Below, piece by piece: positions 3,121 through 49,668 of a stretch of 64,000 bases of DNA. The DNA lies in NCBI GenBank assembly GCA_026393335.1, contig JAPLAJ010000053.1:13521-77520 (forward strand). The letters are read 5' to 3'. Origin of the DNA: Rhodoluna sp. GTDB lineage: Bacteria > Actinomycetota > Actinomycetes > Actinomycetales > Microbacteriaceae. Positions within the stretch are counted from its first letter, which is position 1; the number at the start of each line of letters is the position of its first letter. Made by a program: the position numbers and the translations under genes. The notes beneath the pieces were generated by a model. That model searched no databases. It was not told the origin of the DNA and was given only the letters and a program-made list of their open reading frames with translations.

Positions 3121-4312
3121 AGAGTTTCTGAAGTCTCTGAATACCCTCGAGAAGTTGTGCATCACCTAGAGCATAAGAAAGTCTTACGTAGCCTGAAGGT
3201 CCGAAAGCTTCTCCTGGCACAAGGGCCACTTCTGCTGCATCAAGCATGTAATCACAAAGTTCGAGGCTGGTTTCAATTCTCTTGCCGCCCCACTCTTTTC
3301 CAAGTAATCCAGTGACATCTGAATAAACATAGAAAGCACCTTGAGGTGTTGGGGCAATCCAACCAGGGATCTTGTTCAGTTCATCAACTGCAATTCTTCT
3401 TCTTCTATCAAATGCATCGCGCATTGCTAGAACTTCATCCTGAGGGCCGGTTAGAGCAGCTAGTGCTGCTCGCTGGCTGATGTTAGAAACGTTTGAGGAA
3501 AGGTGTGACTGCAGGTTAGCTGCTGCCTTCATTGCATCTAGAGGTCCAGCCATCCAGCCCAAACGCCAACCCGTCATTGCATAGGTCTTAGCAACACCGT
3601 TGACCATGATGGTCCTGTCAGCTAGTTCAGGAACAACCTCGGTAATTGAATATGCTTTTAGACCGTCATAGGTAAGGTTCTGATAAATCTCATCAGTAAC
3701 AATCCAAAGACCATTTTCATAAGCCCACTTACCAATAGCTTCAACTTGCTCACGAGAGTAAACGGCACCGGTTGGGTTAGAAGGTGAAACAAAGAGAAGA
3801 ACCTTAGTTCTAGGAGTTCTTGCCTTCTCAAGCTGATCAACAGTTACTAGATATCCTTGGTCACTTCCAGAGAAGATCTCAACTGGGACTCCGCCAGCTA
3901 AATGAATAGCTTCAGGGTATGTAGTCCAGAAAGGGGTTGGCACAATAACTTCATCGCCTGGATCAAGAAGAGTTGCGAATGCTTGGTATACAGCTTGCTT
4001 ACCACCGTTAGTAACAACAACCTGTGCTGCAGTTATTTCAGTTCCTGAATCAATCTTTGTTTTGTGAGCAATGGCTTCACGAAGTTCTGGTAAACCAACA
4101 GCTGGGGTGTAACGGTGGTTCTTAGGATCTCTAGCGGCAAGTACAGCAGCTTCAACAATGTGTTGAGGGGTTGGGAAGTCAGGTTCACCTGCTGCATAAG
4201 AAATAACCGGCTTACCAGCTGCTTGTAGAGCCTTAGCCTTAGCATCAACTTTTAGAGTGGCTGACTCTGCAATAGAGCCGATTCGATGAGAGATTCTAGG
4301 AAATTCGTTCAC
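3113..4312 (-). CDS. aspC: PLP-dependent aspartate aminotransferase (class I)
   Basis: The 399-aa product contains [18 protein letters not shown] and a [17 protein letters not shown] lysine motif. Confidence 0.9.
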
Positions 4313-14940: not shown

Positions 14941-17900
14941 TTACCGTAGGGACTTGACCCAAGATGCGCCAGACTTTCCTAGCTTTCGTAACTGCTCTAG
15001 TCGAACAGCTATCCAAACCATCACACCTGCAATCAAGAGCAGGATTACCCATAGGAACCAGCTCTCCCTAGCAATTGGTTGGAATGCATAAGGCAATACA
15101 CCAACAAGCACACCAACAAGGCCTGGGAAGAATAGACCACCGAGTGATCTAAGTGAACCAACTACTAACAACGTAATAGTTGCGGCCATCAGGATTCCGA
15201 ATCTCCACCAGTCCACTCGAGTAAGTGAAGAGTCTCCAATAGAGGTGAATGTTAGGAACAGAGATGGGCCTAGGGCAACAACAGATGGAATACCTAGATA
15301 CAGGTAGCTGGTGTCAGGTAGCTTGTTGATGCTTCGCAAACCACCTAGGAATAAGAACAGGAATAACGAGATACCTAGCGCTCTAATAGCAACTGTTGTT
15401 TCGTAGTCCGAACTTTGTGCAGCGCTTGCCCAAGTAATTGGAACTAGCAATAGGGAAAGTGATGCACCACCAGCGAGGGCAGTACCTAAGTTTCCATTTC
15501 TAATACCAAGCAATAGACAAGCAAGGGCAATTAGCAACACAGTAACTATTCGAATGATCTGGGTTGGGTTAGTTAGCTGAAGCGAAGTGTCTAGCGTTGT
15601 GTAGGTATAAATCACTGATGGAAGTACCAAAGTGAATATTGGTAAACCATAGGTGAAGATAGTGGACTTGAATTCCAAGACCTTCTTTAGGTTTCTATTG
15701 CCAAGAGCAATTGCACCTGCGGCACCGATACCAAACAGTTCTGGGCCATCAAGTAGATCAGGAGCTAATACCTCAACTAGTTGAGCTAATGAAAGTCCTA
15801 GACCTAGAAGACCCGCGTACTCCAAACCTGCCCAAAGCTTGCCCTGGTTCTTTGAGAATCTGAACCATGAGTAACCAGCAAGGATTGCAGTTGATGCAAC
15901 CAAGCGATAAACAGTTGAAGCATCATCAATGTTCTGAGACAAGGAGTATAGAACCGATGCTGCAACTGGTAGTAGCAGTGGCACATCCATACCCATAAGT
16001 CTCTTCAGGCCCTGAGGTGCTGCTGCATTGAATAATGTAGGCAGTGCTGCAGCTATCGCCAATGGAACTGTGTAGAGCTCAAGGTTGAACTTATCCAGGT
16101 CAATTGAGTCACGAAGTAATTGGCTTGTAGTCAAAGCAATAGTTACAGGAGCTAGGTAGCTAAGTGCAAACCAGCCGTTTGTGCTGTTTGCCTTTGCTTT
16201 GCTGGCAATCTGCAATTGTCTAAAGACAATAATTGCGAATACTGCTGAAACGAAAATCTGTCTTCCGCCAACTAGGTTTTCAGATCCATACTTCAGATTC
16301 ATGTCCTCATCGAGTGCGAAACTAGCCACTGTTGCATAGGCCAGCAACATGTAGCCAAGTCCTGCAACACGAAGTGCAATACCGGCATTTCCAGATCCAA
16401 ATTTTGCTAGCTCAGCCAAGGTTGCTGCAAGTGCTGCAACTAGAACAAGAATTAGCAATCCCCATAAGATATCTCCAGAATTACTTGGCTTAGTCCATTC
16501 TGAATAGTTGATTGCAAATGAGCTAACTGAAAGTGCAAACACACTTACCAGTGAGAAGTAGCTGGTGTATCTTCCAGCAACTCTCTTATCAACAATTCGA
16601 AGCACGTAGTTCAAAGCAAGTGCAGCAACAATCACAAGTGCTAGGTGTGCTGAGATTAGTAGGTCTTCTCGTAGCCAAGTAGCAAAGGCTACTAAGCTTG
16701 CAAGAGAGGATCCGTAAGCCAACCAAACAGAGATCTTGTTTTTGCCAATCCAAGCCATTGCATAGTTCAAAGCGGCAAGGCCCATCAAGATTGATGCTGG
16801 GTAGAGCAAGTCATCAACACTCTTGGTTGTAGCAAGCATTCCAAAGGCCAGGATGGCTTGGAAGGAGTAGCTGTATCGCAGCAATAGAGAACTTACCAAC
16901 TGCATTTTCTTCGCCAGAAGAGTTGCAGCCAGTCCAGCAACTACTGCACTTCCACCGGTTACTGCGGATAGATAAAGGCTGTCGGCTGGAGAGCTAGCGA
17001 AGTTGCTAGGCACAGTAATGACGAAAGCAACTGCCGTGGTGAGTATGTGTATGAGAATCTGGGATCCAAAGTCCAACTCTCTGCCTAACTTGCGATTCAC
17101 CAGTGCTGTTATCGGTGAATAAACAACAGCCAGGGCAATCACTGCCAAGCTAATCAGCGCATGCTCTAGAGATAGTGGGTTGTAATCACCATCTAGAACA
17201 ATCCTCACAGTTAGCAATGCCACACCTGCGAAGTGAAGAACGCTGGCAACTCGAACAGAGCTTCGAGGCACGCCCAACCAACTTTGGTAAAGCATTGAAG
17301 AAGCAAATGCAATCAGTAGCAGTGACATTCCAACAAGGAAGTCGTTAAGGTTTGTACCGTCTGCATACCAAAGAATCCAAGATCCTGCCAAAGCTACCTG
17401 GGCAGTGACTACTGCAATTGAGAATTCAGCAAATCTCTTAATATTGAATCCCACTCCGACAACTACAAACATCAGCGAGATGGTTCCGAACAGTCCAGAC
17501 CAGTAACTCTCGCTGACACCAAAGGCCAACCATGAGCCAAGAGCTAGAGAAACTGTTGTGAATGTGAATAGGTGCAGCCAATTGTTTACACGCTTGACTG
17601 AACTTTCCTCATCACTACTTACAGCAGTAAACCAAATCGACTTGGTGGCCAAGGCAAGAATTGTTACAGCTGCAAACGCAGAGAATGAAACCGGCTCAGG
17701 TGCAACACCGAATGTAAGCCCACTAGTAATAGGCCATTGGAGGGCAAAGATAGCAAATGCAGATGAGATGAAGAATGTGAGAGTCTTTAGCGCAACATTC
17801 TCACGCTTAGCAAGGTCCTTCTCGTAATCGAGATCAGGTGTGCCCTTGTCAATTGCAAACTGCATCTTGCCAATTTGCTTACTTGCCAAAGCAATTAGGA

Positions 17901-18951
17901 TACCGGTGAGACCAAGAGCTGCAGCCATCCAACCGAAAGAAGAACTTCTAAATTCAAACCTGCTTCCAAGATCTCCTATTGCATAAACTGCTCCAGCCGT
18001 AGCTAGTGCAACTATAGAAATAATCTTCCAACCAAAGTTTGCTTTGAATCTTGCCAAGACAAATGATGCAGCAGCAACAATAGAAAGATCAAGTGCCCAG
18101 AACCAAGCTGGTGCAGTTTCCCAAGTAAATGTTGGGCTTGAAATATCTCCAGTTACCAGAATTGCAAACATCAACATCGCTGAGGAGAATGTGGCCATAA
18201 AATTTGCCAACATCACTGAGAACTTTCTTCCCCAGAAAGCTAGTAGGCCAGTAACAATCGCAACACCTAGTGTTACAGCTAAGAATCCTGGCTCCTTCAA
18301 GGTGTTCAAGTTTGTTGAAACGAAAATGCTTCCAGCAATCACGATGATTGCGCTAGCACCCATAATCAACCACTGCTGAAGTGAAAGAGACTTTCTTTCT
18401 TTTCTTACCTGCTTCACTTGAGGAGCTGGTGCAGCTGCAGTTTGAGCGGATTGTGTTGCTACCACAGGTGCACCTGCGTTTGTAGCTGAAATGAGTCTTT
18501 GTCGAACAGACATCAAATCTCTTTCGATTCGAAGATAGCTATCGCTCAAGGTTTGATAATCAAGGAGGTCTCTAGTCTTGAAGGTAAACCCACAAGGACA
18601 AGTAACTGATGTCTTTCCCTTTAGATCCTCAGCATTGAAACTGTGCTGACAGACTGTGGTTGGTAGCTCTCCCCCAGATGAAGCAACTGCTGTAGGGGCA
18701 GCCACTCGAGGGGCAACCTGAGCAACTGGTGCAACAGGAATTTGAGTTTGACTTAGTGCCTGGTTCTTCTTGTTGTTCCTAATGATCAGCACTATTCCAA
18801 CAATTACGGCTCCTAGAACAAAAAGTGAGCCGCCGCCGCCGCCTCCTAGAAATAGCAGACTGAGAAGCGATGGAAGTACGATCACAGCTGCGACTATTGA
18901 GCCACAGGTGATTGCGACGATTTTGCCAGCACTGGCAGGTTGTTTGGCCAT
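14941..18951 (-). CDS. Giant polytopic membrane protein of unknown function (1336 aa)
   Basis: It is an uninterrupted ORF. The N-terminus has 2 TM helices around a G6 tract, followed by a roughly 130-aa soluble module with C-x-H...C-x-C. After that, hydrophobic helices run almost continuously to the C-terminus. No catalytic motif was recognised. Confidence 0.8.
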   Translation of the reverse strand: MAKQPASAGKIVAITCGSIVAAVIVLPSLLSLLFLGGGGGGSLFVLGAVIVGIVLIIRNNKKNQALSQTQIPVAPVAQVAPRVAAPTAVASSGGELPTTVCQHSFNAEDLKGKTSVTCPCGFTFKTRDLLDYQTLSDSYLRIERDLMSVRQRLISATNAGAPVVATQSAQTAAAPAPQVKQVRKERKSLSLQQWLIMGASAIIVIAGSIFVSTNLNTLKEPGFLAVTLGVAIVTGLLAFWGRKFSVMLANFMATFSSAMLMFAILVTGDISSPTFTWETAPAWFWALDLSIVAAASFVLARFKANFGWKIISIVALATAGAVYAIGDLGSRFEFRSSSFGWMAAALGLTGILIALASKQIGKMQFAIDKGTPDLDYEKDLAKRENVALKTLTFFISSAFAIFALQWPITSGLTFGVAPEPVSFSAFAAVTILALATKSIWFTAVSSDEESSVKRVNNWLHLFTFTTVSLALGSWLAFGVSESYWSGLFGTISLMFVVVGVGFNIKRFAEFSIAVVTAQVALAGSWILWYADGTNLNDFLVGMSLLLIAFASSMLYQSWLGVPRSSVRVASVLHFAGVALLTVRIVLDGDYNPLSLEHALISLAVIALAVVYSPITALVNRKLGRELDFGSQILIHILTTAVAFVITVPSNFASSPADSLYLSAVTGGSAVVAGLAATLLAKKMQLVSSLLLRYSYSFQAILAFGMLATTKSVDDLLYPASILMGLAALNYAMAWIGKNKISVWLAYGSSLASLVAFATWLREDLLISAHLALVIVAALALNYVLRIVDKRVAGRYTSYFSLVSVFALSVSSFAINYSEWTKPSNSGDILWGLLILVLVAALAATLAELAKFGSGNAGIALRVAGLGYMLLAYATVASFALDEDMNLKYGSENLVGGRQIFVSAVFAIIVFRQLQIASKAKANSTNGWFALSYLAPVTIALTTSQLLRDSIDLDKFNLELYTVPLAIAAALPTLFNAAAPQGLKRLMGMDVPLLLPVAASVLYSLSQNIDDASTVYRLVASTAILAGYSWFRFSKNQGKLWAGLEYAGLLGLGLSLAQLVEVLAPDLLDGPELFGIGAAGAIALGNRNLKKVLEFKSTIFTYGLPIFTLVLPSVIYTYTTLDTSLQLTNPTQIIRIVTVLLIALACLLLGIRNGNLGTALAGGASLSLLLVPITWASAAQSSDYETTVAIRALGISLFLFLFLGGLRSINKLPDTSYLYLGIPSVVALGPSLFLTFTSIGDSSLTRVDWWRFGILMAATITLLVVGSLRSLGGLFFPGLVGVLVGVLPYAFQPIARESWFLWVILLLIAGVMVWIAVRLEQLRKLGKSGASWVKSLR

Positions 18952-38578: not shown

Positions 38579-39556
38579 GTGGAGATAACCAACGAAATGC
38601 GCCAGCAGATACTTGAGACTGCAAGAGTCCTAAGTATCCCGATGCGCATCAAGTTCAGAGGCATAACCACTAGAGAAGTCTTACTATTTGAAGGCCCTAA
38701 TGGCTGGGCTGAATGGTCACCCTTCACAGAATATGAAAATGAAGAAGCCAGTATCTGGCTAAAAGCAGCCATTGAGTTTGCCTTTGGCGACATCCCAGAG
38801 CCAGCTGTAAACACCATCAAAGTCAATGCCACCCTGGCTGCAGTCAAAGACGTAAGAGCAGCCCTAGAACCATTTGGCAACTTCGAAGTAGTAAAGATCA
38901 AAGTTGCCGAAAAGGGACAAACACTTCAAGACGACCTTGACCGCATCCATGAAGTAAGAAAGTACTACCCAGAAGCTCGAATAAGACTGGATGCTAACGG
39001 TGGCTACGACATAGAAACAGCATTAGCCCTAGCTAATGCAATGTACGAAGAAGGTGTTCCATTGGAATACCTAGAGCAGCCAGTAAAGACCATCGCGGAA
39101 CTTGCTGAACTAAAACTTAAACTCAAGCTTCTAAACATAAAGATTGCTGCTGACGAATCAGTGAGAAAAGTAAGTGACCCATTAGCAGTAGCTCAAGCCA
39201 ACGCAGCAGATCTACTTGTTCTAAAAGCAGCACCACTCGGTGGCATAAACAACGCACTAAGAATTGCCAAAGAAGCAGGACTGCCTGTTGTTGTATCAAG
39301 TGCATTAGAAACATCAGTAGGAATAAGCATGGGTGTTCACCTTGCCGCTCTTCTAGATAGTGATTACGCAAGCGGTCTAGGAACAGCAGCACTACTCACA
39401 GAAGATGTAACAGACACTCCCCTAATCCCAATCAACGGTCAAATACCCGTAACAAGTATCACCCCAAACAAAAACGCTCTAACCAAACTCCAAGCACCAG
39501 CAAATAGAACTACTTGGTGGATGGATAGGTTAGAGCGTTGTTTGAACGTTTATTAG
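38579..39556 (+). CDS. menC: o-succinylbenzoate synthase (enolase superfamily, GTG start)
   Basis: The product contains RIRLDANGGY, KIAADESV and LVLKAAPLGG. It is divergent from menB. Confidence 0.85.
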   Translation: MEITNEMRQQILETARVLSIPMRIKFRGITTREVLLFEGPNGWAEWSPFTEYENEEASIWLKAAIEFAFGDIPEPAVNTIKVNATLAAVKDVRAALEPFGNFEVVKIKVAEKGQTLQDDLDRIHEVRKYYPEARIRLDANGGYDIETALALANAMYEEGVPLEYLEQPVKTIAELAELKLKLKLLNIKIAADESVRKVSDPLAVAQANAADLLVLKAAPLGGINNALRIAKEAGLPVVVSSALETSVGISMGVHLAALLDSDYASGLGTAALLTEDVTDTPLIPINGQIPVTSITPNKNALTKLQAPANRTTWWMDRLERCLNVY

Positions 39557-40049
39557 GGTTTATCGTCTTGAACAAAGTATGAGCAGATTGTCTAAATATC
39601 GAATTCGATTATTGCTATTTCCAAATCAACAAACATTAATCTACAAGATCGTTTCTTGAGCATTCTTGGAACATATTGATCTTCAAAATCGAATGAGCTT
39701 TTCTCTTTCCGACTGTGGTCTGTCCCAGAAAACAGGCTCTGATGATTACCAGTTTCAAGATGCACTCGCCCCAAAACAGCTATTTGCACAAGAAAAGTAG
39801 GTACTTTTTGTGAAAGTGATTTTTCTGCGACAACGATTTTGTGGGAGAAAAGCGGCAAAAAATTTTTTAGAGATTTACCCCGTAAAAATAATTTTGAACT
39901 AGTAAAAATGTGGAATGAGGCCATGAAAACGCAGGACAACATTTTACGTTCACAATTCGCCTCAGCTGTTGCAAATTATCGAGTGAAATCGCATCGATTT
40001 CTTGTTTCACTTTGCATTTCCCCAAATCCTGTATCTAACCTAGCTGGTT

Positions 40050-40811
40050 TCATTCGGAACGGATTATTTTGGCAAAACCTTGTAAAGACTGACTCAGGTT
40101 CAAGTATGATTCATCATCGCCCCTGAAATGTAAGGTCTTTAAGTTTGGGGTTAGTTCAATTAGTTTTTCAACATTTGTCAACGAAGATATCTCCGTCAAA
40201 TCTAGCCTGCTTATGTTTGTCGCCACCCAGCTAAATGATCTGAAATCTATTGAGCGAGCATTTGCAATACCGAGGTAGCCGAGCTTTGGTAAGTCACTCA
40301 GATCAATAGATGTCTCCAACGCTCCCCGCAAAAAGAGTCTTTCAACAGAAGGAGGGAGAGTTCTAAACCATGACTTTCGCAATTGCGAAACAGAAACATA
40401 CTTTAGGCAGTGCAACTCTCTGAGTCCTGTTATGTTCTGCAAGCTCGGCGATTCGCCGTACAGCATTTCCAAATGACTTAAGTTTTTCAAATCCAATTGA
40501 GTTCCCAGATGCACTTTTAATCTCAGACTCCTCAAGGCTTTATACCCACTAATTGGCGTTAAATTTAGGCTGTCTAAAGATGTTCTAATGTCCAAGCTTT
40601 TCACTGCCTTGAGAGACATTAAAGCCTTATCAAAATTTCTTCGTACAAATTGTTCTTCAACTTCGTACCATGAATGTTTTTTTATTACAAATTGACTTGG
40701 AAGTAATGTAGCACCAAAACCAAGCATGGTAAATACACTCAAACTGGTTGTTTTAGACTCAGAGCAGTCGTATACTACGTTCAGTCTTCCATGTGCTTTC
40801 TCAATAATCAT
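40050..40811 (-). CDS. Leucine-rich-repeat protein, candidate immunity protein for the upstream RHS toxin
   Basis: The 253-aa product has no signal peptide. It carries tandem repeats of about 22 aa of the L..L..L.L type (LRSLRLKVHLGTQLDLKNLSHLEMLYG..., LSDLPKLGYLGIANARSIDF..., ISRLDLTEISSLTNVEKLIELTPNLKTLHF). The gene starts 13 nt after the toxin stop. Confidence 0.6.
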   Translation of the reverse strand: MIIEKAHGRLNVVYDCSESKTTSLSVFTMLGFGATLLPSQFVIKKHSWYEVEEQFVRRNFDKALMSLKAVKSLDIRTSLDSLNLTPISGYKALRSLRLKVHLGTQLDLKNLSHLEMLYGESPSLQNITGLRELHCLKYVSVSQLRKSWFRTLPPSVERLFLRGALETSIDLSDLPKLGYLGIANARSIDFRSFSWVATNISRLDLTEISSLTNVEKLIELTPNLKTLHFRGDDESYLNLSQSLQGFAKIIRSE

Positions 40812-40824
40812 AGTTATTGCCAGC

Positions 40825-43800
40825 CTAACCCTTTTGTTTGATGGAATTTATCTTGTTTATTAGATTTGGATTACACCCTCGGCATTTGATGCCCCCTGCT
40901 TGATTTATCAATGTTTGCTCAAATGTTCTTCTTTCAAGAACTGTCTTCCCCGGCATCTCGTGAAACACAAAATTCTCTATTTGCCCTTTGTAAGTGACTC
41001 CGTGTTCTTTCATTCGTCGAATCACATCCACGGTTTGTCCGATGTACTTTTTACCTCCCACAGTAAATTCGTAGACGCCTGGCCCTTTGGCAAGAGCAAG
41101 TTCCGTTACTTTCACGAATTCGACAGTTTTTACTGCTTTTGTAGTCGTAAGAAGGCCCTTCGCAACCTTGGCGACCTTACTCCCAATTGAAATCGCCTTC
41201 CCCACCCAAGCTGCTTGTTGAAGTCCTGGAATTGGGATAAAACTGGCTACAGTGAGAGCTAAATCCAGTGTGTCCCATCCGTCCCACAAGCCAGTAAAGT
41301 CACTTCCGTTGACGGGGTCATTTGGGTAGGTGTAGCTGTTTTCGTTTCCGCCTTTGATTGGGTCTTTTGAGGTGAATTGGTTGGTTTCAGGGTTATAGAC
41401 TCTTGCTCCCATGAGGATGAGTCCTGTGGTGTTGGTGGCTCTTTCTTGTTGACTGTAGGAGCTGTAGTTGATGAGGTTTGTGTTGGTTTGGCTGGTTAGA
41501 GGGTTGCCAAACGAGTCATAAACACTCCAGCCACCAACAGAGTTGCTGTCTAGATCCAGGGTCGTGACTGTGTGCCCACGGATGTCTGTCAACTGCATGG
41601 ACGAGGTTCTAACAGTGCCCTTGAAAGTGGTGGTAACAGCAAGCCCTGCACCTAATGATCCTGTATAGATTTCTGTGGTGAGGTTCGCCCCAGACTGTTG
41701 GGTGGTCCATTCAGGGTTATCTGAAGAGTCACTGTAATGTCTGACAGTTGTTAGGTTGCCTACTGTTTCGTTTACTCTTCTACCTAAAGCATCATAGGTA
41801 AATGAGGTTGTTGAACCAGACTGGGTGATACCTGTCACCTGATCCACCAGGCTATAGCTCAAGCTGATTCCTGCATTATTTGCTGGAGCATCAACAGCAG
41901 GGATAAACGTATTTCTACCTAAAGTGTCATAAACATAGCCATTGGTTGTGAGCTGTGATTCAGCGTTGAAACTATTTGTTTTAGTTGTGGTAGCACCACA
42001 AACTCCGACACTGCTGCTTGTTCTATCTCCTCGAGTGTTATAGCTGTAACTCTCGGAGAAACAAGAAGCACCATTAGAGGACACTGATGCAAGCCTTGAA
42101 GAAGAGTCATAACCATAAACAGTGGCCTTTGGTGAAGCACTACTAGAAGAATCAGGTGCTAGCTCTCGTATTACCCGGCCATAGCCGTCGTACTCCCTGC
42201 TCCAAGACAACACAGTAGATGCCACAGAGCCGTAACTCATTGAAGAGATCTGGCCAGCATCATTAAACATGTTGGTCTGGGTAACACCATTAGGGCCAGA
42301 CTGGCTGGTTAGCCTGCCGTATTCGTCATAAACACCCGAATACAGGTAACTGAAAGGTGTTCCGGCAGAACTAGAACCAGTGATGTTCATAGCTGTAACT
42401 AGGGCTCCAGGCTCTGAAGTATTGCCGTAAGTGTAAGAAGTGGTTGTTCGAGGTGAAACAACAGTTGAGACAGATCCTGCAGCTAACTGTCCTGAAGGAA
42501 CATAACTCGTGGAGGTAACCTCTCCTAGGCTGTTTGTTGAAGTTATCTGTCTACCCCAGGCATCGAAAGTTTGACTTGTTTCACTTTGCTTAACCCCTGC
42601 AACATAGCTTTCAGTTTTAGTCTCTAAAAGAGACACTGGATCGTAAAGGTGCTTAGTAGATATCGATGCAGCACCTGATGCTGAAACAGTTGAAGTATCT
42701 GCTCTACCATCAGCCAGATAAGTGTTTGTTGTTGTTCTAACTAGAGAACCGAAACGATATTCTGCAACAGTCAAAGGATTCAACGCAGGATCATAGGCAG
42801 AGACATGACTCTTTGATGAAGGCAGTGTTTCACCTGTTTGTGAAATACATAGCAAATCCTGCCAAGCCGGCTTCAAACCACACTCAGGGAACAAACTATT
42901 AGCAGCAGAACTGTAATACACATAGACATCAGTTCTAGCATCAACACCATTAGACCCAGGAGCAACAGATTTAACTTGCTGTCCAAGCTCATTGAAAACT
43001 GTCTTTGATGTTGAAACCAAAACCTCAGAACTATCAAAAGACTCTACGAGCGTTGGTATCCCTAAAGTCCAACCCGAAACAGTGCTGCCATCTTGAGGGG
43101 CATAATCCTTTTTTGTGCTACCCAACACTTGAATGACTGTATCTGGTGACTGCGCCAAGACTAACTCAACCTTTGAAGAAGTCAACAGGCCAGTTAACGG
43201 TTCACCCTCACGATAATCGTCATAAGTGTAACTTGTATATGTTCGAACTTCTTTAGGGTCGCCAGATGCATCCAAAACAGTCTTTTTAGGGGACCAAGTT
43301 TCAGATAGATAAGCACCATTAGGGACAGTGAAGCCATTTACCTGTGTATAAAACTTAGAGACACTGGCATACATAAACTCATCAAAGGTGCTGCCACCTT
43401 CAGTTGCTGTCCGATCTAATACGTTGTTTATACCCTGGCTATCGAATGTGGCGTAAACAACATTTTTAATTCGGATTGTTGCGGTGTAGAGCCATTTTGT
43501 TTTACCGTAGCTAGCGGTGTTAGTTGGTTTACCGTCAACATCGAGGAATGTGAAATCAGCGTTACGCCAGAGCGCACTTGTCGACGCTGGCACGATCACG
43601 TTTCCTGAAGCGTCCAGTGGGATAGTACTATCAGCCCCGAAAACGGCCGCCGCATAGAACGGGGCTGTTTCTTGACCCCAAAGCAAAGTAGTGGAAAGTG
43701 GCAAGTTCGGCAAGAAACCAGTGTTACCTGAAGGGTTCAGGTCATAAACAAAGGTTTGCTCCACGTTTGAGGAAGCAACCCAACTACTGTTTAGGCTTCT

Positions 43801-44469
43801 AGCGACCTGCACAAGCCTGCCTGAAGCATCATATTTGAATGTGTAAGGAGCGAAACCACTCACAGAAACTTTAGAAAGCTTCCCTAAACCGTTGTATTCA
43901 TAGGAGACAGTGGAGCCGTTTGTGTTATCTGTGACCTGCATCAACACTCCAGATTCATAGGTGTATGACTTCTTCAAAACTGTTACTGGTGAACCAGTAA
44001 CAAGATCTAGGTATTTGTAACTTATAGTTGCAAGCAGTCCTGCAGCGTTATAGGTGTAAACCAAACCTTGAGTAACAGAGGTACCCTGACAGCCAACTGT
44101 TCCTAAAGCTGCATATCCTGAGGCAGAAACTCGACCTGTTGCATCAAAAGTCGTTATAACTGCTCTAGTTGAAGCATTTGATTTAGCGCACAATAAACGC
44201 CAATCACCGCTAGTTGGCTTCATGAAGGTAGTAGTTGCCTGATCAGTTTCAGTAACAGTCAACACGTTTCCTGCAACTGAAACTTGCAGGTTAGCAGCTT
44301 TCGCCTCATCAGATACAGGAGTCAAAGTTGTTGTGCCACTGAACTCTAAAACATCTGAGTCAGGACTAATCAAATAGTAATGACCATTATCAGGATCGTT
44401 AGTGGCACTGTAACCAGAAAGAGCTGTCGCATCGCTAGAGAAAGATGCTGACCAACCTTCACCAAACAC
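40825..44469 (-). CDS. RHS/YD-repeat protein with an RHS core and a C-terminal GIY-YIG-like toxin domain (3' segment of a disrupted gene)
   Basis: There are many YD repeats (YTYDALGRRV, YVYDTLGRNTF, REYDGYGRVIRE, YDEYGRLTS). The RHS core ends in GARVYNPETNQFTSKDPI...YTYPNDPVNGSDFTGLW. The tail contains GVYEFTVGGKKYIGQTVDVIRRMKEH. The predicted start is an internal GTG with no signal peptide. Confidence 0.85.
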   Translation of the reverse strand: MFGEGWSASFSSDATALSGYSATNDPDNGHYYLISPDSDVLEFSGTTTLTPVSDEAKAANLQVSVAGNVLTVTETDQATTTFMKPTSGDWRLLCAKSNASTRAVITTFDATGRVSASGYAALGTVGCQGTSVTQGLVYTYNAAGLLATISYKYLDLVTGSPVTVLKKSYTYESGVLMQVTDNTNGSTVSYEYNGLGKLSKVSVSGFAPYTFKYDASGRLVQVARSLNSSWVASSNVEQTFVYDLNPSGNTGFLPNLPLSTTLLWGQETAPFYAAAVFGADSTIPLDASGNVIVPASTSALWRNADFTFLDVDGKPTNTASYGKTKWLYTATIRIKNVVYATFDSQGINNVLDRTATEGGSTFDEFMYASVSKFYTQVNGFTVPNGAYLSETWSPKKTVLDASGDPKEVRTYTSYTYDDYREGEPLTGLLTSSKVELVLAQSPDTVIQVLGSTKKDYAPQDGSTVSGWTLGIPTLVESFDSSEVLVSTSKTVFNELGQQVKSVAPGSNGVDARTDVYVYYSSAANSLFPECGLKPAWQDLLCISQTGETLPSSKSHVSAYDPALNPLTVAEYRFGSLVRTTTNTYLADGRADTSTVSASGAASISTKHLYDPVSLLETKTESYVAGVKQSETSQTFDAWGRQITSTNSLGEVTSTSYVPSGQLAAGSVSTVVSPRTTTSYTYGNTSEPGALVTAMNITGSSSAGTPFSYLYSGVYDEYGRLTSQSGPNGVTQTNMFNDAGQISSMSYGSVASTVLSWSREYDGYGRVIRELAPDSSSSASPKATVYGYDSSSRLASVSSNGASCFSESYSYNTRGDRTSSSVGVCGATTTKTNSFNAESQLTTNGYVYDTLGRNTFIPAVDAPANNAGISLSYSLVDQVTGITQSGSTTSFTYDALGRRVNETVGNLTTVRHYSDSSDNPEWTTQQSGANLTTEIYTGSLGAGLAVTTTFKGTVRTSSMQLTDIRGHTVTTLDLDSNSVGGWSVYDSFGNPLTSQTNTNLINYSSYSQQERATNTTGLILMGARVYNPETNQFTSKDPIKGGNENSYTYPNDPVNGSDFTGLWDGWDTLDLALTVASFIPIPGLQQAAWVGKAISIGSKVAKVAKGLLTTTKAVKTVEFVKVTELALAKGPGVYEFTVGGKKYIGQTVDVIRRMKEHGVTYKGQIENFVFHEMPGKTVLERRTFEQTLINQAGGIKCRGCNPNLINKINSIKQKG

Positions 44470-45284
44470 TGAGTTCTAGAAACAGATAGGGACTGTAAAC
44501 CAACCTGTTGACTGTAATCGGTAGTCGACATGTTGAATTTGCCGGAAACCAAAGAAACAATTCCAGGACCTGCTGATGCGACTGCGCTATCTAAACTATT
44601 AGGCAACCTTGTTACAGAGAAACCTGAATCATCTGAGCAAAACCATTCAGCGATAGAGGAATAGTAGAAACAAAAACGCAGATCGATAGTTACAGGAATA
44701 TTCTGCGGCAAGGAAGGAGAACTGAAAACACCGATGTTTGACACATTCAGTTTGTAATCGTAAACACCTTTCAAACCTGATTTTGTAGTCAACGGAATGT
44801 TTGATTCGGCTGCATCCCAAGCGTTGGAAGTTCCTTGTTTACGCCACTCAATGGAGGCCGAAGTTGGTTGTAAACCAGACATCGAGGCGCCGTATCCAGA
44901 GACCATAACGCTAGATGCAACGGTAGGTCCTGTCAATGGAGAAATAGCTCCCACATAGCCGAAAGTCATTGTGTGTGAAGCGGTGACAGATGCGATGCCA
45001 TTTGTTTTCTTAGCGACTGCTGTTATTCGTCGTTGAAAAGAGCCTGCAGGAAGAGAAATTGCCTGGCTCAAAGACCCGTCAACGTTTGTTTGATAATTTA
45101 CTGGCGCGGATCCATCGACACTGATGCTAAGCGTGTTTGTTCTATAGCTCTCAGGAGCTGCAGTAGAAGATACAGTACAAGTCACCGGTGCAGTTGGTGT
45201 GTATCCACCTTGGTATCCGTTTGCGTAAGGACAGGTAATAGTAGGTGTCAGTGGTTGTGTTGCTTCAACCTTGAAGGTAAGCAC
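44370..45284 (-). CDS. Middle segment of the disrupted RHS gene (Ig-like/pre-RHS region)
   Basis: It is in the same frame as 45291..46952, separated only by TAA plus 2 codons. It ends in out-of-frame junk (LSVSRTQCLVKVGQHLSL...) where the third segment's frame reads NSVFGEGWSASF. Confidence 0.6.
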   Translation of the reverse strand: MLTFKVEATQPLTPTITCPYANGYQGGYTPTAPVTCTVSSTAAPESYRTNTLSISVDGSAPVNYQTNVDGSLSQAISLPAGSFQRRITAVAKKTNGIASVTASHTMTFGYVGAISPLTGPTVASSVMVSGYGASMSGLQPTSASIEWRKQGTSNAWDAAESNIPLTTKSGLKGVYDYKLNVSNIGVFSSPSLPQNIPVTIDLRFCFYYSSIAEWFCSDDSGFSVTRLPNSLDSAVASAGPGIVSLVSGKFNMSTTDYSQQVGLQSLSVSRTQCLVKVGQHLSLAMRQLFLVTVPLTILIMVITI

Positions 45285-45290
45285 CGGAGA

Positions 45291-46952
45291 TTAGGATTCA
45301 GAACTGACTCGACTGTCAGAACTCGATGCTCTAACAAAATAGGTCTGATTATTAGTCAAAGCTGTTGTTGGTTTACAGGTGCCTGAACTACCGCTTGAAA
45401 CAATGACAGTACACAAAGTACTACTAGCCGTTGTAGAAGTTGCTGTTGGGTAGGCCTTGAAAGCTAAAGTTACATTTCCGCCATCAGGATCCAAAGCCTT
45501 AGAAGTGAAAGTAGGTTTCCAAGAACCAACACTCAAGTAACCAGAATTCTGGATTGAATCACTAACTGTAGGGGTTACAGCAGTGCCAGGGTACCGGTTG
45601 TAATTAATGGTTAGTGAAGGCTTATTGTTTGAAGCGTTCGAAGAGTTGAATCTCTTCCAACCAAAACTATCTGCCTCATTTGAGGCCTTAATGCCAAAGC
45701 CCGCTCGATTAGAAATAACCACAGGCATGTTAGCTGCCAGATTAGTTACATCCGTAGTTATGTTAGCTGCCGGACAACTCGAGTTGTAGCCCGCTGCAAC
45801 ACTTTTAGCAACACCAACACCACCAATAGTTGGGGCATTACCCCACCTAGTTGAAGGAGTGGCAGGTGAAATTGCGTAAATACTAAAGTTTCGTGCAGTA
45901 CAAGACCAAGACCAGTTCAAATACAACTTCAAGTTAGCTGAAATGATGTCTTGGCCAATCCAGCCAGTTGAATCAAAGTTTAAGTAAGACCGGTAAACAG
46001 AAGAACCACCATCAGGTGTACCAACTAAAAGTTCTGTTGAAGACTGAAAATCAGTTGTCGGATAAACGTTAGTCACATAAGTATCAAAAGTTGGATCTAA
46101 AACAACAGCTGGATCAACAATGACTGGATACTCTAAATCTTCACGCTCAAAAAATGTCCCATCAACAGCTAAATCTAAAACACCAGTAGCACCAATAACC
46201 GGTTCCAGTTCAGAAGTTATAGGCGCTGTTGCACCATCAGCAGAGTCATACATGAAAGGAGTAGGAACGGAGCCAAGCACTTGGCTTCCAGAAACAAACT
46301 CGTATCCGCCATTACTGTCGGCTTGCAGACGAACATTCTTACCCTTAACAAGAAGCTTCAACTTATCTAGAGTCGCTGCATCAGGTTTAGCTTTAACCTC
46401 AAAAGACTGTTCAAAACCAGAAGCATCCAGGCGAATCAGCAAATCAACATTAGGTAAAACATCAACAAAACGAGCAGTGTCCTCAAACAACACAGGCTTA
46501 GGTAAAGCCCCATCCCAACCAAAACCAAAATGGTTTCCATCAGACCCTGAGATACTCACTAAACCATCTGCTAAAACTTCTGCAGCAGTGCCACCACCAG
46601 AAACCTTGAAATCAAAACGACCAGATTTAGCTCGAACAAAACCCGCATCATCAAATACCAAAGTGAAATCAAGATCACGCCACCCATACTCCCCAGCACC
46701 ATCGCGAACCCTAACTGGAGCACCAAAAGACTCAGTAGTTAGAGTCCCATCAGGATTAACCCAAGTAGAAGAAAGCTCAGACAACTCAGAAATCACCAAA
46801 ATACGGTGATTAGTTATAGCAGCCTGCAACCTAGCTGAAATGTAATCCTCAGCAGCATAACTAGGTGCAACAGTGAAAGCTTGAGCAGGTGTAACGCCTT
46901 GCAGCAGTAAAGAAAGACCAACGAAAACAGAAACAAATTTTATAAACTTCAA
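45291..46952 (-). CDS. N-terminal segment of the disrupted RHS gene: Sec signal peptide plus a DNRLRE-type domain
   Basis: The signal peptide is MKFIKFVSVFVGLSLLLQGVTPAQA. SVYRSYLNFDSTGWIGQDIISANLKLYLNWSWSC...RWGNAP resembles DNRLRE domains found at the N-termini of actinobacterial RHS proteins. Confidence 0.7.
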   Translation of the reverse strand: MKFIKFVSVFVGLSLLLQGVTPAQAFTVAPSYAAEDYISARLQAAITNHRILVISELSELSSTWVNPDGTLTTESFGAPVRVRDGAGEYGWRDLDFTLVFDDAGFVRAKSGRFDFKVSGGGTAAEVLADGLVSISGSDGNHFGFGWDGALPKPVLFEDTARFVDVLPNVDLLIRLDASGFEQSFEVKAKPDAATLDKLKLLVKGKNVRLQADSNGGYEFVSGSQVLGSVPTPFMYDSADGATAPITSELEPVIGATGVLDLAVDGTFFEREDLEYPVIVDPAVVLDPTFDTYVTNVYPTTDFQSSTELLVGTPDGGSSVYRSYLNFDSTGWIGQDIISANLKLYLNWSWSCTARNFSIYAISPATPSTRWGNAPTIGGVGVAKSVAAGYNSSCPAANITTDVTNLAANMPVVISNRAGFGIKASNEADSFGWKRFNSSNASNNKPSLTINYNRYPGTAVTPTVSDSIQNSGYLSVGSWKPTFTSKALDPDGGNVTLAFKAYPTATSTTASSTLCTVIVSSGSSGTCKPTTALTNNQTYFVRASSSDSRVSSES

Positions 46953-47197
46953 GGAAATCCCCCATAGTAGAAACGAACAATAAAAAAGACTCTACTGCCC
47001 ACCACCGACAAAGTATCCCCATTTGGCAACTTATGTCCAATCGGTGTGTCTTTATTGACATAGTTCCTATTTGAGCACAAACGTACCAAAAAGGGATTTC
47101 AAATATCAGTCCGTGTTTCTATACTTTGTCGCTCAGCCCAATAGTTAACCCAGACAAAGACGTAATCAAAAGATGTAACCGCCTTGTTTGCAAGTCT

Positions 47198-48112
47198 TTA
47201 AAGACCTGAATAAACGTGTAATCCCTTGAAGTACATATTTACGATGGTGAAGTTGAAGATGATGGCTGTGAAACCTATGAGGGTTAGCCATGCTGCTCGC
47301 TTGCCTTCCCAGCCTCTTGTTGTAGTGGCGTGAAGGTAGGCAGCGTAAATAGTCCAGATGATGAAGGTCCATACCTCTTTAGTGTCCCAACCCCAGAAGC
47401 GGTGCCAGGCTTTATCAGCCCAAATAGCTCCTGCGATAAGGGTGAATGACCAGAGAATGAAACCAATGATGTTGAACTGGTAGTAAGTGCGCTCTAGCTT
47501 TTCAACCTTAGGGAAAACCTTTAGTTGCTTCTTTAGAGCTTTTACACCTTTGAGCTTTGAGTTATTGATCCACTTGCTCTCTTTGAGAATGTGGATCAAC
47601 GCAAGCGTTGCTGCAATGGTGAAGAAAGCTGTTGCAAGAATTGCAACGCTTACGTGGATTACTAACCAGTAATCCTGCAGAGCTGGAAGAAGAGATTCAA
47701 CCTGGACATAGAACAATGTGTTGGCTGAACCAATGATTAGAACTACAAATCCTGCTACGAAAGAAGAGATGAACTTAATGTCTTTGAAGAGCAGTGAGAG
47801 TAAGTAAATGGATGTAACTACAAAAGCACCTGAGATTGAGAACTCATACATGTTTGCCCATGGCACACGGTTCGCAGCGATACCTCTAGTTAGAACCCCA
47901 ATACCGTTAGCTACAACACCAAGAGTGAAGAGAGTAAGACCGATGGTGTCTAAACGATTAGCAAAGGCGCCTTTCTTTCCTTTTGCTCCTGCTCTCTTGG
48001 TTAGAGCCCAGGTTAGAACAATGAATGCAAATGAATAGAAGGTCAAACCGATCAAGACAATAAATCTTGACAGGGTAGCAAGCTCTGGGTTCAGTGCAAT
48101 CTCTGGTGTCAT
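47198..48112 (-). CDS. ccsA: Cytochrome c biogenesis protein CcsA/ResC (System II)
   Basis: It carries the Trp-rich heme-handling motif WHRFWGWDTKEVW and has multiple TM helices. It follows resB. Confidence 0.9.
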   Translation of the reverse strand: MTPEIALNPELATLSRFIVLIGLTFYSFAFIVLTWALTKRAGAKGKKGAFANRLDTIGLTLFTLGVVANGIGVLTRGIAANRVPWANMYEFSISGAFVVTSIYLLSLLFKDIKFISSFVAGFVVLIIGSANTLFYVQVESLLPALQDYWLVIHVSVAILATAFFTIAATLALIHILKESKWINNSKLKGVKALKKQLKVFPKVEKLERTYYQFNIIGFILWSFTLIAGAIWADKAWHRFWGWDTKEVWTFIIWTIYAAYLHATTTRGWEGKRAAWLTLIGFTAIIFNFTIVNMYFKGLHVYSGL

Positions 48113-49668
48113 TTACTCTTCTTCTTTAGTGATTTAGCGATGTCCTTCACTAGGTTATCTAGTGATTTATCTTTTGATTTAGCAAGAGCTCCAACTTCAA
48201 CTCCAGCCTTAGAAACCTTTACCCATACTCTTCTGCGAGGAATGATGAGCATTAAGACTAAGCCAAACAAGGTAGTCAGAGCAAAGAACAACACCCAGAT
48301 ATCCAGTGGGTTAAATGTAATGTCTAACGAAGCAAATCTCTTTAGTCCTTTGAACTCGACTGTTCCAAGATCTCCTGGCAGCTCAACAGTTTCCCCTATT
48401 GCAAGTCTTAGGGCCTTGACTCCACTCTTACCACCAGCAACCTGCTTCATGGCGTGAACATCAAGCTTGTATGCATTTACTGCCATGCCACTATCTAGGC
48501 CGAGGTTTCCGACATAGACGTTCATGGTCATTAGTGGATCCCATGGATAAGGATGGTTCGAGGTTAGGGCTCCAGTTTCGAGCTTGGCAACTGTTGGATA
48601 GAAGAAAGCAAGTATTCCAAACTGCTCTGGATTTGCATCTGGAACTTTGATAGCTCCGAGAGATGTCAGGTTTGAATCCTGTGGCAAGAAAACAACTGGG
48701 CCACTAAAGGAAACGATTCCATCTTTATCTCTCACAACTATTACTGGAGCAAAGCCATTGCCGGTGATATAAACCTTTGCTCCAGGAAGATGCAGTGGCT
48801 CGTTCACTCTGATTTGTGATTTCACAACTGGACTGGCTGGTGTCTCTTTTGAAGAAACTTTCGCAATGAAATCCATCGGCTTACCGTAGTTAGCAGGGTT
48901 CTTATAGTCATAGGTTGTGCTGAAGGAATCTAACCTCAGGCTAAAAGGTTCCATGCTGCTTTTATCGAAAAGTAACCCTGGGGCAAAGAAGTCGTAGGAG
49001 GCTTCGTTGTTTACCAAAGTGTCGCCTTCAACTAAGACTCTCTGCCCTTGGTAACTAAGGCCTCCACCTAATCCAACTGTTATCAAAACTCCAATAAGAG
49101 AGATGTGGAAGAAGAGGTTGCCTGTTTCTCTGAGGTAACCTTTCTCAGCTCTAATTCCAGTCTTGGTTGAAACAATTCTGAACTTTTTACTCTTTAGTAA
49201 CTCAATTGCCTTCTTTAGATTGGCATCTGATTGATCTAACTTCTTGTATGCAGGAAGTCTTGAAAGATTAGTTGGTGCCTCTGGCGGATCTGCACTTAGT
49301 GCTTTGTAATGCACTCCAACTCTAGGTAGCACACAACCAATCAAAGAGATGAAAAGCAGTATGTATATGGAGGAGAACCAGGTTGATGAATAAACATCGA
49401 ATAACTGGAAGTTATCTAACCAAGCGGCAAGGTCTGGATTGTTCTTGAAGTAAAGAACAACTCCGTTAGGGTCAGCACTTCTTTGTGGAAAGACTGAACC
49501 AGGAATCGATGCTAAGGCTAAGAACAATAAGAGGTATAGAGCAATCTTCATGCTGGTTAGCTGACGCCATAGCCATCTGCCCCAAGACTTCAAAGACAGA
49601 TCGGGTGCTTCAATAGGTTCGTTGTATTCCTTACGAACCTTGTATTTAGATTGCTGGGATGAAACCAC
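48109..49668 (-). CDS. resB: Cytochrome c biogenesis protein ResB/CcsB
   Basis: The 519-aa product begins LWRQLTSMKIALYLLLFLALASIPGSVFPQR, the typical ResB start. It has a large extracytoplasmic domain. Confidence 0.9.
   Translation of the reverse strand: MVSSQQSKYKVRKEYNEPIEAPDLSLKSWGRWLWRQLTSMKIALYLLLFLALASIPGSVFPQRSADPNGVVLYFKNNPDLAAWLDNFQLFDVYSSTWFSSIYILLFISLIGCVLPRVGVHYKALSADPPEAPTNLSRLPAYKKLDQSDANLKKAIELLKSKKFRIVSTKTGIRAEKGYLRETGNLFFHISLIGVLITVGLGGGLSYQGQRVLVEGDTLVNNEASYDFFAPGLLFDKSSMEPFSLRLDSFSTTYDYKNPANYGKPMDFIAKVSSKETPASPVVKSQIRVNEPLHLPGAKVYITGNGFAPVIVVRDKDGIVSFSGPVVFLPQDSNLTSLGAIKVPDANPEQFGILAFFYPTVAKLETGALTSNHPYPWDPLMTMNVYVGNLGLDSGMAVNAYKLDVHAMKQVAGGKSGVKALRLAIGETVELPGDLGTVEFKGLKRFASLDITFNPLDIWVLFFALTTLFGLVLMLIIPRRRVWVKVSKAGVEVGALAKSKDKSLDNLVKDIAKSLKKKSK

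Follow-up and report, generated by a model that had tools for sequence, protein, structure and literature searches.

GIY-YIG (URI) nuclease domains have been described as C-terminal tips of polymorphic toxins. A 2012 catalogue lists Tox-URI1 tips of RHS proteins, also from Actinobacteria, under a signature of Y, YxG, R, [RK]xxE and N, and the same work recognises leucine-rich-repeat (LRR) proteins as an immunity class, Imm-LRR (Zhang, de Souza, Anantharaman, Iyer & Aravind, PMC3482391). Among the Rhs effectors of type VI secretion systems (T6SSs), predicted GIY-YIG tips have been reported in PAAR-RhsA-GIY-YIG of Salmonella Livingstone (PMC11669294). Stenotrophomonas has Rhs-Ct groups with predicted GIY-YIG tips (bioRxiv 10.64898/2026.07.13.738213), and GIY-YIG tips also occur in TANFOR toxins (PMC7073777). 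Here we examined a locus in a 64,000-nucleotide (nt) stretch of Rhodoluna sp. (contig JAPLAJ010000053.1, positions 13,521 to 77,520; GC content 45%), referred to below as the window, in which a minus-strand open reading frame (ORF) at 40825-44469 encodes 1214 amino acids (aa). A first-pass annotation, made from the letters of the window, had placed a compact GIY-YIG-like nuclease at the end of this ORF, and its statement that URI tips in polymorphic toxins were already known agrees with the Tox-URI1 catalogue (PMC3482391). Our analysis suggests that the region is very likely the swappable tip at the C-terminus of a secreted RHS toxin from an actinobacterium, equipped with a small GIY-YIG nuclease and with an LRR immunity gene next to it.

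A compact GIY-YIG nuclease domain at the tip

The 1214-aa ORF closes with ...NENSYTYPNDPVNGSDFTGLW, and the 152-aa tail that follows begins with DGWDTLDLALTVASFIPIPGLQQAAWVGKAISIG, contains GVYEFTVGGKKYIGQTVDVIRRMKEHG further along and ends with LERRTFEQTLINQAGGIKCRGCNPNLINKINSIKQKG; the internal stretch GPGVYEFTVGGKKYIGQTVDVIRRMKEHG lies between DGWDTLDLALTVASFIPIPGLQQAAWVGKAISIG and LERRTFEQTLINQAGGIKCRGCNPNLINKINSIKQKG. The end of the RHS core (YTYPND...GLW) occupies 41334-41284, the 152-aa tail 41283-40828, and the GVY motif starts at 41079. The strings and coordinates quoted in the first-pass annotation are all correct in the minus-strand translation of the window.

A word-indexed protein search with the tail returned two close relatives only. 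When 1.84 billion representative proteins were searched exhaustively with phmmer, 43 hits were obtained at E<=1e-3, about 39 of which are real; P0003, P0017, P0041 and P0043 were dropped as repetitive-protein artefacts. Most of the real homologues, which come from several phyla, represent the C-terminal end of an RHS/YD protein or a short piece of such an end, and the precomputed Pfam annotations on family members include PT-HINT, PT-TG and GIY-YIG. In the toxin-domain family alignment (A1, 32 sequences), columns Y18, Y27, G29, R37, E69, Q70 and N90 are invariant, corresponding to Y1133, Y1142, G1144, R1152, E1184, Q1185 and N1205 of the window, and G16, H41 (H1156), I73, G78, L88 and N93 are conserved in at least 90% of the members. 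By alignment, these residues make up the classical catalytic set of GIY-YIG nucleases. The key residues of the window's domain are Y1133, Y1142, G1144, R1152, H1156, R1180, E1184 and N1205, and it has a Cys pair at C1196/C1199. The residues that the first-pass annotation had picked out as catalytic are the conserved ones, as Y, Y-x-G, R and E are invariant among the 32 relatives and the His is at least 90% conserved.

The family also connects the tip to known nucleases. The Pfam GIY-YIG model PF01541 matches 31 of the 32 alignment members at E<0.1 (best 2.9e-9), and its gathering score is exceeded by P0029 (35.6 bits), P0023 (25.8), P0057 (24.5) and P0009 (22.9). Searched against the PDB, the A1 profile found UvrC (1yd6, 5e-4), I-TevI (1mk0, 7e-4), BH0048, T4 EndoII and SLX1, and in the alignment GVY, YIG, R and E fall opposite their counterparts in UvrC. 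R1152/H1156 align with 'R..SY' of UvrC and 'R..RH' of I-TevI, and E1184 aligns with the Glu of 'ILE(A/M)NLIKK' in UvrC. The hairpin motifs G1131-V-Y1133 and Y1142-I-G1144 align with the equivalent motifs in UvrC and I-TevI; GVY is separated from YIG by 8 residues in the tip and by 9-10 in the aligned PDB sequences. The hairpin is therefore 1-2 residues shorter than in the two known nucleases, in line with the shortening already reported in the first-pass annotation, and the 8-residue spacing recurs in 22 of the 32 family members.

The predicted structure agrees with the profiles. The AlphaFold model of the domain alone has a mean confidence (pLDDT) of 82.5 and a beta-beta-alpha-beta-alpha order, with strands (E) and helices (H) at E7-13, E16-22, H25-36, E41-47 and H53-66. 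A Foldseek search with this model returned UvrC with probability 1.00 (TM-score 0.55, root-mean-square deviation 3.3 A over 77 columns) and I-TevI with probability 0.97, followed by GRXS16-N and BH0048, and no other credible match. The six top Foldseek matches partly overlap the GIY-YIG entries that the A1 profile had found in the PDB, and the remaining entries among the six we take to be GIY-YIG folds as well. Profile and structure searches placed UvrC and I-TevI closest and led to no non-nuclease fold, which by the criterion of the first-pass annotation would have refuted its GIY-YIG/URI assignment; the fold class is borne out by the A1 profile, the PF01541 matches, the AlphaFold model and the Foldseek matches. 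The dN/dS of the toxin domain between lineages is 0.06-0.08, and the domain is under purifying selection between lineages. An identity with Tox-URI2 was ruled out, as the Pfam Tox-URI2 model matches no family member.

Several observations weigh against reading the tip as a DNA-cutting GIY-YIG nuclease. The tail alone reaches PF01541 at E=0.007-0.016 with 15.9-17.0 bits, below the gathering score of 22.6, and phmmer with the single tail sequence against the PDB returned nothing at E<=10. The Foldseek E-value is modest (0.012), as is common for a domain of ~85 aa, and the last ~20 residues of the model, which comprise the Cys loop and N1205, have a pLDDT of 63-67. The model of the whole 152-aa tail, diluted by its disordered linker (pLDDT 65.7), gave a weak Foldseek match to I-TevI (E=0.5), a weakness that the domain-only model resolved. 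DNA as the substrate is taken from the family only, and the GIY-YIG domain of a TANFOR polymorphic toxin has been labelled 'endoribonuclease' (PMC7073777). Nevertheless, while the single-sequence searches of PF01541 and the PDB are weak, the likeness goes beyond chance, and the family-level profile and structure evidence is decisive for reading the tip as GIY-YIG.

The TANFOR description (PMC7073777) raises the alternative that a tip with this fold acts on RNA or on another substrate rather than on DNA, and a domain that is a minimal core without a DNA-binding extension would suit it. We consider this quite unlikely, since every structure or sequence neighbour that we found is a DNA nuclease (UvrC, I-TevI, T4 EndoII, SLX1), the full catalytic set is conserved, and RHS GIY-YIG tips are predicted to be DNases in other papers (PMC11669294). 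DNA cutting is thus kept as the most likely activity of the tip.

The first-pass annotation had also suggested that a CRGC pair near the C-terminus may mark a distinct subtype, which our comparison did not confirm. The pair is limited to about 5 close relatives. A CxxC is present in the window, P0001, L062-L064, P0004 (CRSC), P0005 (CNTC), P0019 (CVRC) and the frame-corrected L001 (CKGC). Loops of the same length without Cys exist in P0022 (KRGERNP) and L004-L006 (PKRAGNKK), and most members have no such loop altogether. In favour of a metal-binding pair that defines a distinct, zinc-ribbon-like URI toxin subtype is its retention in the CxxC-bearing sequences just listed. However, there are two Cys only, a second ligand pair is not conserved, about 27 of the 32 family members have no Cys pair, the Cys-less loops of P0022 and L004-L006 have the same length, and the Cys loop is modelled at low confidence. 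These observations are better explained by a surface disulfide or by a neutral insertion specific to the clade, and a metal-binding subtype is very improbable. We read the CxxC as an insertion into a loop at the level of a clade, which may form a disulfide. Separately, the L001 tip has a frameshift just before its CxGC loop, which may reflect gene decay or an assembly error at low coverage (4.7x).

Predicted release motif and pre-toxin linker

The coordinates of the domain and of the other features of the locus are collected in Table 1.

Table 1. Features of the RHS toxin locus, in window coordinates; residue numbers are those of the 1214-aa ORF unless P0021 is named
Feature	Position	Strand	Evidence
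Compact GIY-YIG (URI) nuclease toxin domain, residues ~1129-1214 (about 85-88 aa)	40828..41085	-	Family alignment, profiles, AlphaFold, Foldseek, dN/dS
Pre-toxin linker, W1062 to ~1128 (~65 aa)	41086..41286	-	No Pfam family; AlphaFold helices; conserved in relatives
RHS repeat-associated core (plug/aspartyl autoprotease region), residues 984-1061	41287..41520	-	TIGR03696 E=2.3e-13
RHS/YD-repeat shell, first 983 residues of the 1214-aa ORF	41521..44469	-	Pfam RHS_repeat PF05593 E=2.2e-13; NCBIfam YD_repeat_2x E=8e-10
Candidate immunity gene, 253-aa LRR protein, 13 nt after the toxin stop codon	40050..40811	-	Profile against internalins; downstream of all evaluable tips
Swapped cassette: toxin domain, immunity gene and AT-rich spacer	39547..41148	-	blastn against syntenic L060
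37-nt deletion relative to the intact orthologue, frameshifting	44466..44475 (~44472)	-	MAFFT alignment with the L060 gene
Second RHS gene fragment, same frame as the N-terminal fragment	44373..45290	-	Collinear with P0021 residues ~555-830
Premature stop TAA inside the RHS gene	45291..45293	-	Window TCC TAA TCT, L060 TCC TTA TCA (Leu); frame unchanged after
N-terminal RHS gene fragment: signal-peptide-like N-terminus (Sec-type), DNRLRE/CBM96 domain, Ig-like region	45294..46952	-	Pfam CBM96 E=1.3e-15; NCBIfam DNRLRE E=3.3e-24

In RhsA of Pseudomonas protegens, the release site reads PxxxxDPxG[W/L/F], and D1324 and D1346 are catalytic (PMC8765631). The TIGR03696 match to the window's core spans the full model (1-76/76), and its last residue is L1061, the Leu of DFTGL. 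The core ends in P1052-VNGS-D1057-FTG-L1061, with D1036 upstream, and neither D1036 nor D1057 varies among the relatives aligned over the core and linker (A3). The window retains counterparts of the two catalytic Asp residues as well as the PxxxxD spacing, with Phe in place of Pro. The first-pass annotation had described DFTGL as a variant of the usual DPxGL. It does differ from the proteobacterial consensus, but it is no variant in its own lineage: among 56 related loci from actinobacteria, the Asp is followed by F at 19, by L at 17, by T at 6, by Y at 4 and by P at 1. The related loci were found with patterns from A3, that is, from this gene's own core and linker, so the motif counts describe its relatives and not all Actinobacteria. 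Judged by these loci, DFTGL is the lineage norm, and the DPxGL rule for RHS release sites would be loosened to D-[F/L/Y/T]-x-G for Actinobacteria.

What follows the release site can be very different elsewhere in this set of loci. Most of the related actinobacterial RHS genes (L008, L010-L027) have tails that are strongly hydrophobic and rich in Gly, Ala and Cys directly after D-x-x-G, for example NGWLDLGVAVFGGLIGGAICAATAVIGCLVGG, and that resemble membrane-inserting tips or entry modules.

In the window, the predicted release site is followed by an amphipathic, Lys-rich linker whose AlphaFold helices have a pLDDT of 35-55. The linker is conserved in L001-L006, L060-L064, P0009, P0036 and P0037 and lies mostly in the constant part of the gene, the DNA identity to L060 holding up to 41149. 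A transmembrane helix was ruled out, as the Kyte-Doolittle maximum (19-residue) of 1.14 is below the transmembrane range. In the first-pass annotation, the linker was tentatively likened to pre-toxin domains of the PT-TG type. We found no Pfam family at E<=10 in 41085-41430, which covers the core end and the linker, and the 152-aa tail at E<=1 gave GIY-YIG only. By contrast, the positive control, family member P0057, matched PT-TG (PF14449, E=3e-9) directly before its GIY-YIG domain, so the proposed assignment was not borne out. A divergent PT-TG domain would be in keeping with this true PT-TG in front of a GIY-YIG domain, with the similar position between release site and toxin and with an [IL]P-x-x-G element. 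Against the Pfam results, and with no TG motif in the window's linker, we give a divergent PT-TG domain little probability, and we treat the segment below as an amphipathic helical linker.

Two of the related loci, L007 and L009, have tails whose first ~20 linker residues (WGWGDTLDLALTIASFIP) are common with the window, after which an unrelated basic C-terminal domain follows (...QYRGPKTKAGKTSANLEQFAKVHGDYATQPRFNFHIQIERGFFK). The shared start and the subsequent switch of domain suggest a recombination junction inside the linker.

A recombining toxin-LRR cassette in an interrupted RHS gene

The nuclease domain and the LRR gene form a recombining cassette. In a blastn comparison of L060 with the window, identity is ~86% from the upstream genes to 41149, including the RHS shell region; nothing aligns beyond this point, and the alignment resumes at 39546 in menC. 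Sliding identity to L060 drops from 0.85-0.91 to 0.41-0.49 at the cassette. The toxin-LRR cassette of the window is also found in L061, L063 and L064 (86-87%) and in L062 (97%), and the 58 related loci carry many different tips. The spacer at 39557-40049, between the LRR ORF and menC, is AT-rich (37% GC) and is probably a non-coding cassette remnant. A 116-aa ORF within it (39592-39942) was rejected as a part of the system, having no Pfam match and no conserved homologue, lying in the 37% GC spacer and not being gene-called in L063.

The LRR ORF, which the first-pass annotation did not mention, is a consistent companion of this tip type. An HMM scan found a homologous LRR ORF after 11 of 11 evaluable GIY-YIG tips, representing 4 tip variants, and the LRR ORF of the window shares 23-29% identity with the ORFs of three other variants (L060, L002/L003 and L004-L006; BLASTP E 1e-9 to 1e-20). 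A profile of 5 LRR homologues (A5) matched internalin LRR structures in the PDB at E=5e-12. The L002 homologue lies above the Pfam LRR_4 gathering score (27.4 vs 27), and the window ORF alone gives weak LRR matches. The window ORF has no Pfam match to Imm14, Imm26, Imm44 or Imm51. With a dN/dS of 0.21, the candidate gene is under purifying selection. The family is small, with 11 homologues in a 5.8-billion-protein collection. In L062, the LRR gene (3580-4221) is cut to 213 aa by a frameshift, which at a coverage of 3.4x may be real or an error.

LRR homologues without an adjacent GIY-YIG tip also occur, at 3916-4755 in L014, 1484-2437 (-) in L022, 1302-2156 (-) in L007, 1609-2463 (-) in L009 and 3302-3520 in L026. 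They may be orphan immunity genes. Those in L014, L022 and L007/L009 mean that the pairing is not exclusive, a point against the reading that we favour. We put forward only tentatively, and as somewhat less probable than its opposite, that the minimal (~85-aa) GIY-YIG toxin and a dedicated LRR protein with a conserved ~60-aa N-terminal 'GFG' module form an undescribed, narrowly distributed pair, which would have moved as one cassette between the Sec-secreted RHS toxins of freshwater Microbacteriaceae with streamlined genomes. If this were true, nuclease immunity would have a structural solution of a new type, in which an LRR horseshoe clamps the GIY-YIG active site.

The RHS gene itself is interrupted upstream of the tip, a second feature absent from the first-pass annotation. 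The ORFs at 45291-46952 and 44370-45284 belong to the same RHS gene as the 1214-aa ORF. The N-terminal fragment is collinear with the intact 2048-aa orthologue P0021, which starts with MKFIKFVAVFVGLSLLVQSVTPANA and is encoded on contig L060 in the same neighbourhood as in the window: histidine phosphatase, resA, ccdA, resB, ccsB, RHS, a 267-aa ORF, menC and menB. At the deletion, P0021 reads SRTYNGNAFYTDTQSSVFGEGW, whereas the window has SRTQ and then VFGEGW in another frame. An alternative genetic code for the in-frame stop is not needed, as the stop is a TAA and the genes next to it read normally with table 11. Because of the TTA-to-TAA change and the 37-nt frameshifting deletion, the copy in the window is probably a pseudogene and the secretable toxin is probably no longer made, even though the tip and the immunity ORF are still open.

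This conclusion has to be weighed against the possibility that the lesions are assembly errors. The sole near-identical contig, L062 (97%), begins a short way past the deletion and so cannot confirm them. The gene might then be intact in the organism, with the stop and the deletion being assembly or binning artefacts and the toxin being made and secreted normally. The organism looks like a freshwater actinobacterium of Microbacteriaceae type. By genome, its nearest relatives are metagenome-assembled genomes (MAGs) of freshwater Microbacteriaceae and Micrococcales, Rhodoluna among them; the closest relatives are all MAG contigs, and the window may be a metagenome assembly too. Such an origin, the intact tip and immunity gene under purifying selection between lineages, and the open frame of L062 over the 1187 codons that it covers would all suit an artefact. 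Yet the lesions are two and independent, a 37-nt deletion is atypical of sequencing error, and L062 itself has a truncated immunity gene. Moreover, at 1849-2729 of the ENA contig L001, from a more distant relative, ccsB is followed directly by the last ~250 RHS codons, with ~5.5 kb of the same gene missing; the segment is syntenic with 47197-49071 and 40849-41622 of the window, and the loss, unless it is an assembly error at the low coverage of L001, shows that decay of the locus recurs in the lineage. An artefact is accordingly unlikely in our judgement, and a decaying gene is the reading that we retain.

Elsewhere in the window, a 1336-aa ORF at 14941-18951 (-) has no Pfam family at E<=1e-5 and lies among three alpha-amylase-family and sugar ABC-transporter genes.

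Proposed mechanism and comparison with known systems

What is directly established at this locus is the sequence, the fold class, the conservation of the catalytic residues, where the cassette begins and ends, the linkage of toxin and LRR gene, and both lesions. In the mechanism that we propose, the intact gene would encode a Sec-secreted actinobacterial RHS/YD-repeat polymorphic toxin. Its RHS shell would end in an aspartyl-autoprotease core that cleaves itself at the motif PxxxxDFTGL. A cut after L1061 would release a basic fragment of 153 aa (predicted 16.7 kDa, pI 9.8), made up of the ~65-aa amphipathic helical linker and the ~88-aa nuclease. The Tox-URI1-like nuclease would most likely kill a neighbouring cell by cutting its DNA, and the adjacent LRR protein would most likely bind and neutralise the nuclease in the producer.

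The locus adds a Gram-positive, Sec-dependent case to a catalogue of RHS GIY-YIG toxins that is mostly centred on T6SSs, and the consistent LRR partner is a possible marker for this tip type. It also illustrates the decay of toxin genes in small freshwater actinobacterial genomes, through a nonsense change and a deletion here, with tip and LRR ORF open, and through a 5.5-kb loss in a relative. The ~85-aa domain is near the minimal GIY-YIG core and would be a convenient model if active. The practical value is modest, and the current understanding of polymorphic toxins is unchanged.

Tox-URI1 is among the closest described systems. Its signature is found here after the RHS core as Y1133, Y1142-x-G1144, R1152, R1181-x-x-E1184 and N1205, although the family-wide invariant Arg lies 4 residues before the Glu in the window (R1180) and not 3. 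The immunity families of Tox-URI1 are Imm14, Imm26, Imm44 and Imm51 (PMC3482391), whereas the neighbour here is an LRR protein. By the published signature, the tip can be classed as a Tox-URI1-like RHS tip.

With UvrC (1ycz, 1yd5, 1yd6) and I-TevI (1ln0, 1mk0), the tip shares the beta-beta-alpha-beta-alpha core and the catalytic constellation at TM-scores of 0.53-0.55. In I-TevI (Y17, R27 and H31), the spacings are the same as in the tip, namely 10 from the Tyr of YIG to Arg and 4 from Arg to His. The Arg-to-Glu distance is 32 residues in the tip and 48 in I-TevI. The tip departs from both nucleases in its shorter hairpin, in a sequence identity of 17-22%, in having no DNA-binding or partner domain, and in a presumed role as a secreted toxin rather than in repair or homing.

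The T6SS Rhs GIY-YIG effectors resemble the locus in their RHS shell, GIY-YIG tip, downstream immunity gene and polymorphic cassette exchange. They are, however, Gram-negative, PAAR-linked and T6SS-delivered and have DPxGL, while the window's toxin has a Sec signal peptide, a DNRLRE/CBM96 N-terminus, a Gram-positive lineage, DFTGL and an LRR candidate.

A Gram-positive counterpart is WapA of Bacillus subtilis, a Sec-dependent, wall-associated YD/RHS-repeat protein that has a polymorphic nuclease at its C-terminus and whose gene lies next to an immunity gene. The window's gene likewise belongs to a Gram-positive, signal-peptide-bearing RHS/YD protein with such a nuclease and an adjacent candidate immunity gene. 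WapA tips are tRNases, and the N-terminal region of WapA consists of wall-binding repeats, not of DNRLRE/CBM96.

For the release site, RhsA of P. protegens (PMC8765631) is the reference. Both proteins have PxxxxD-x-x-G-[W/L/F] with a second Asp ~21-22 residues upstream (D1036/D1057 in the window, D1324/D1346 in RhsA), and in both the released toxin is ~15-17 kDa, as predicted for the window. The Phe that replaces Pro after the Asp in the window is the common actinobacterial state.

Taken together, the locus carries, as far as its sequence goes, every feature of the URI-tip RHS class, and the kind of module is already known. It departs from the described systems in detail: in the Sec/DNRLRE delivery architecture, the Phe release motif, the very compact core and the LRR immunity candidate.

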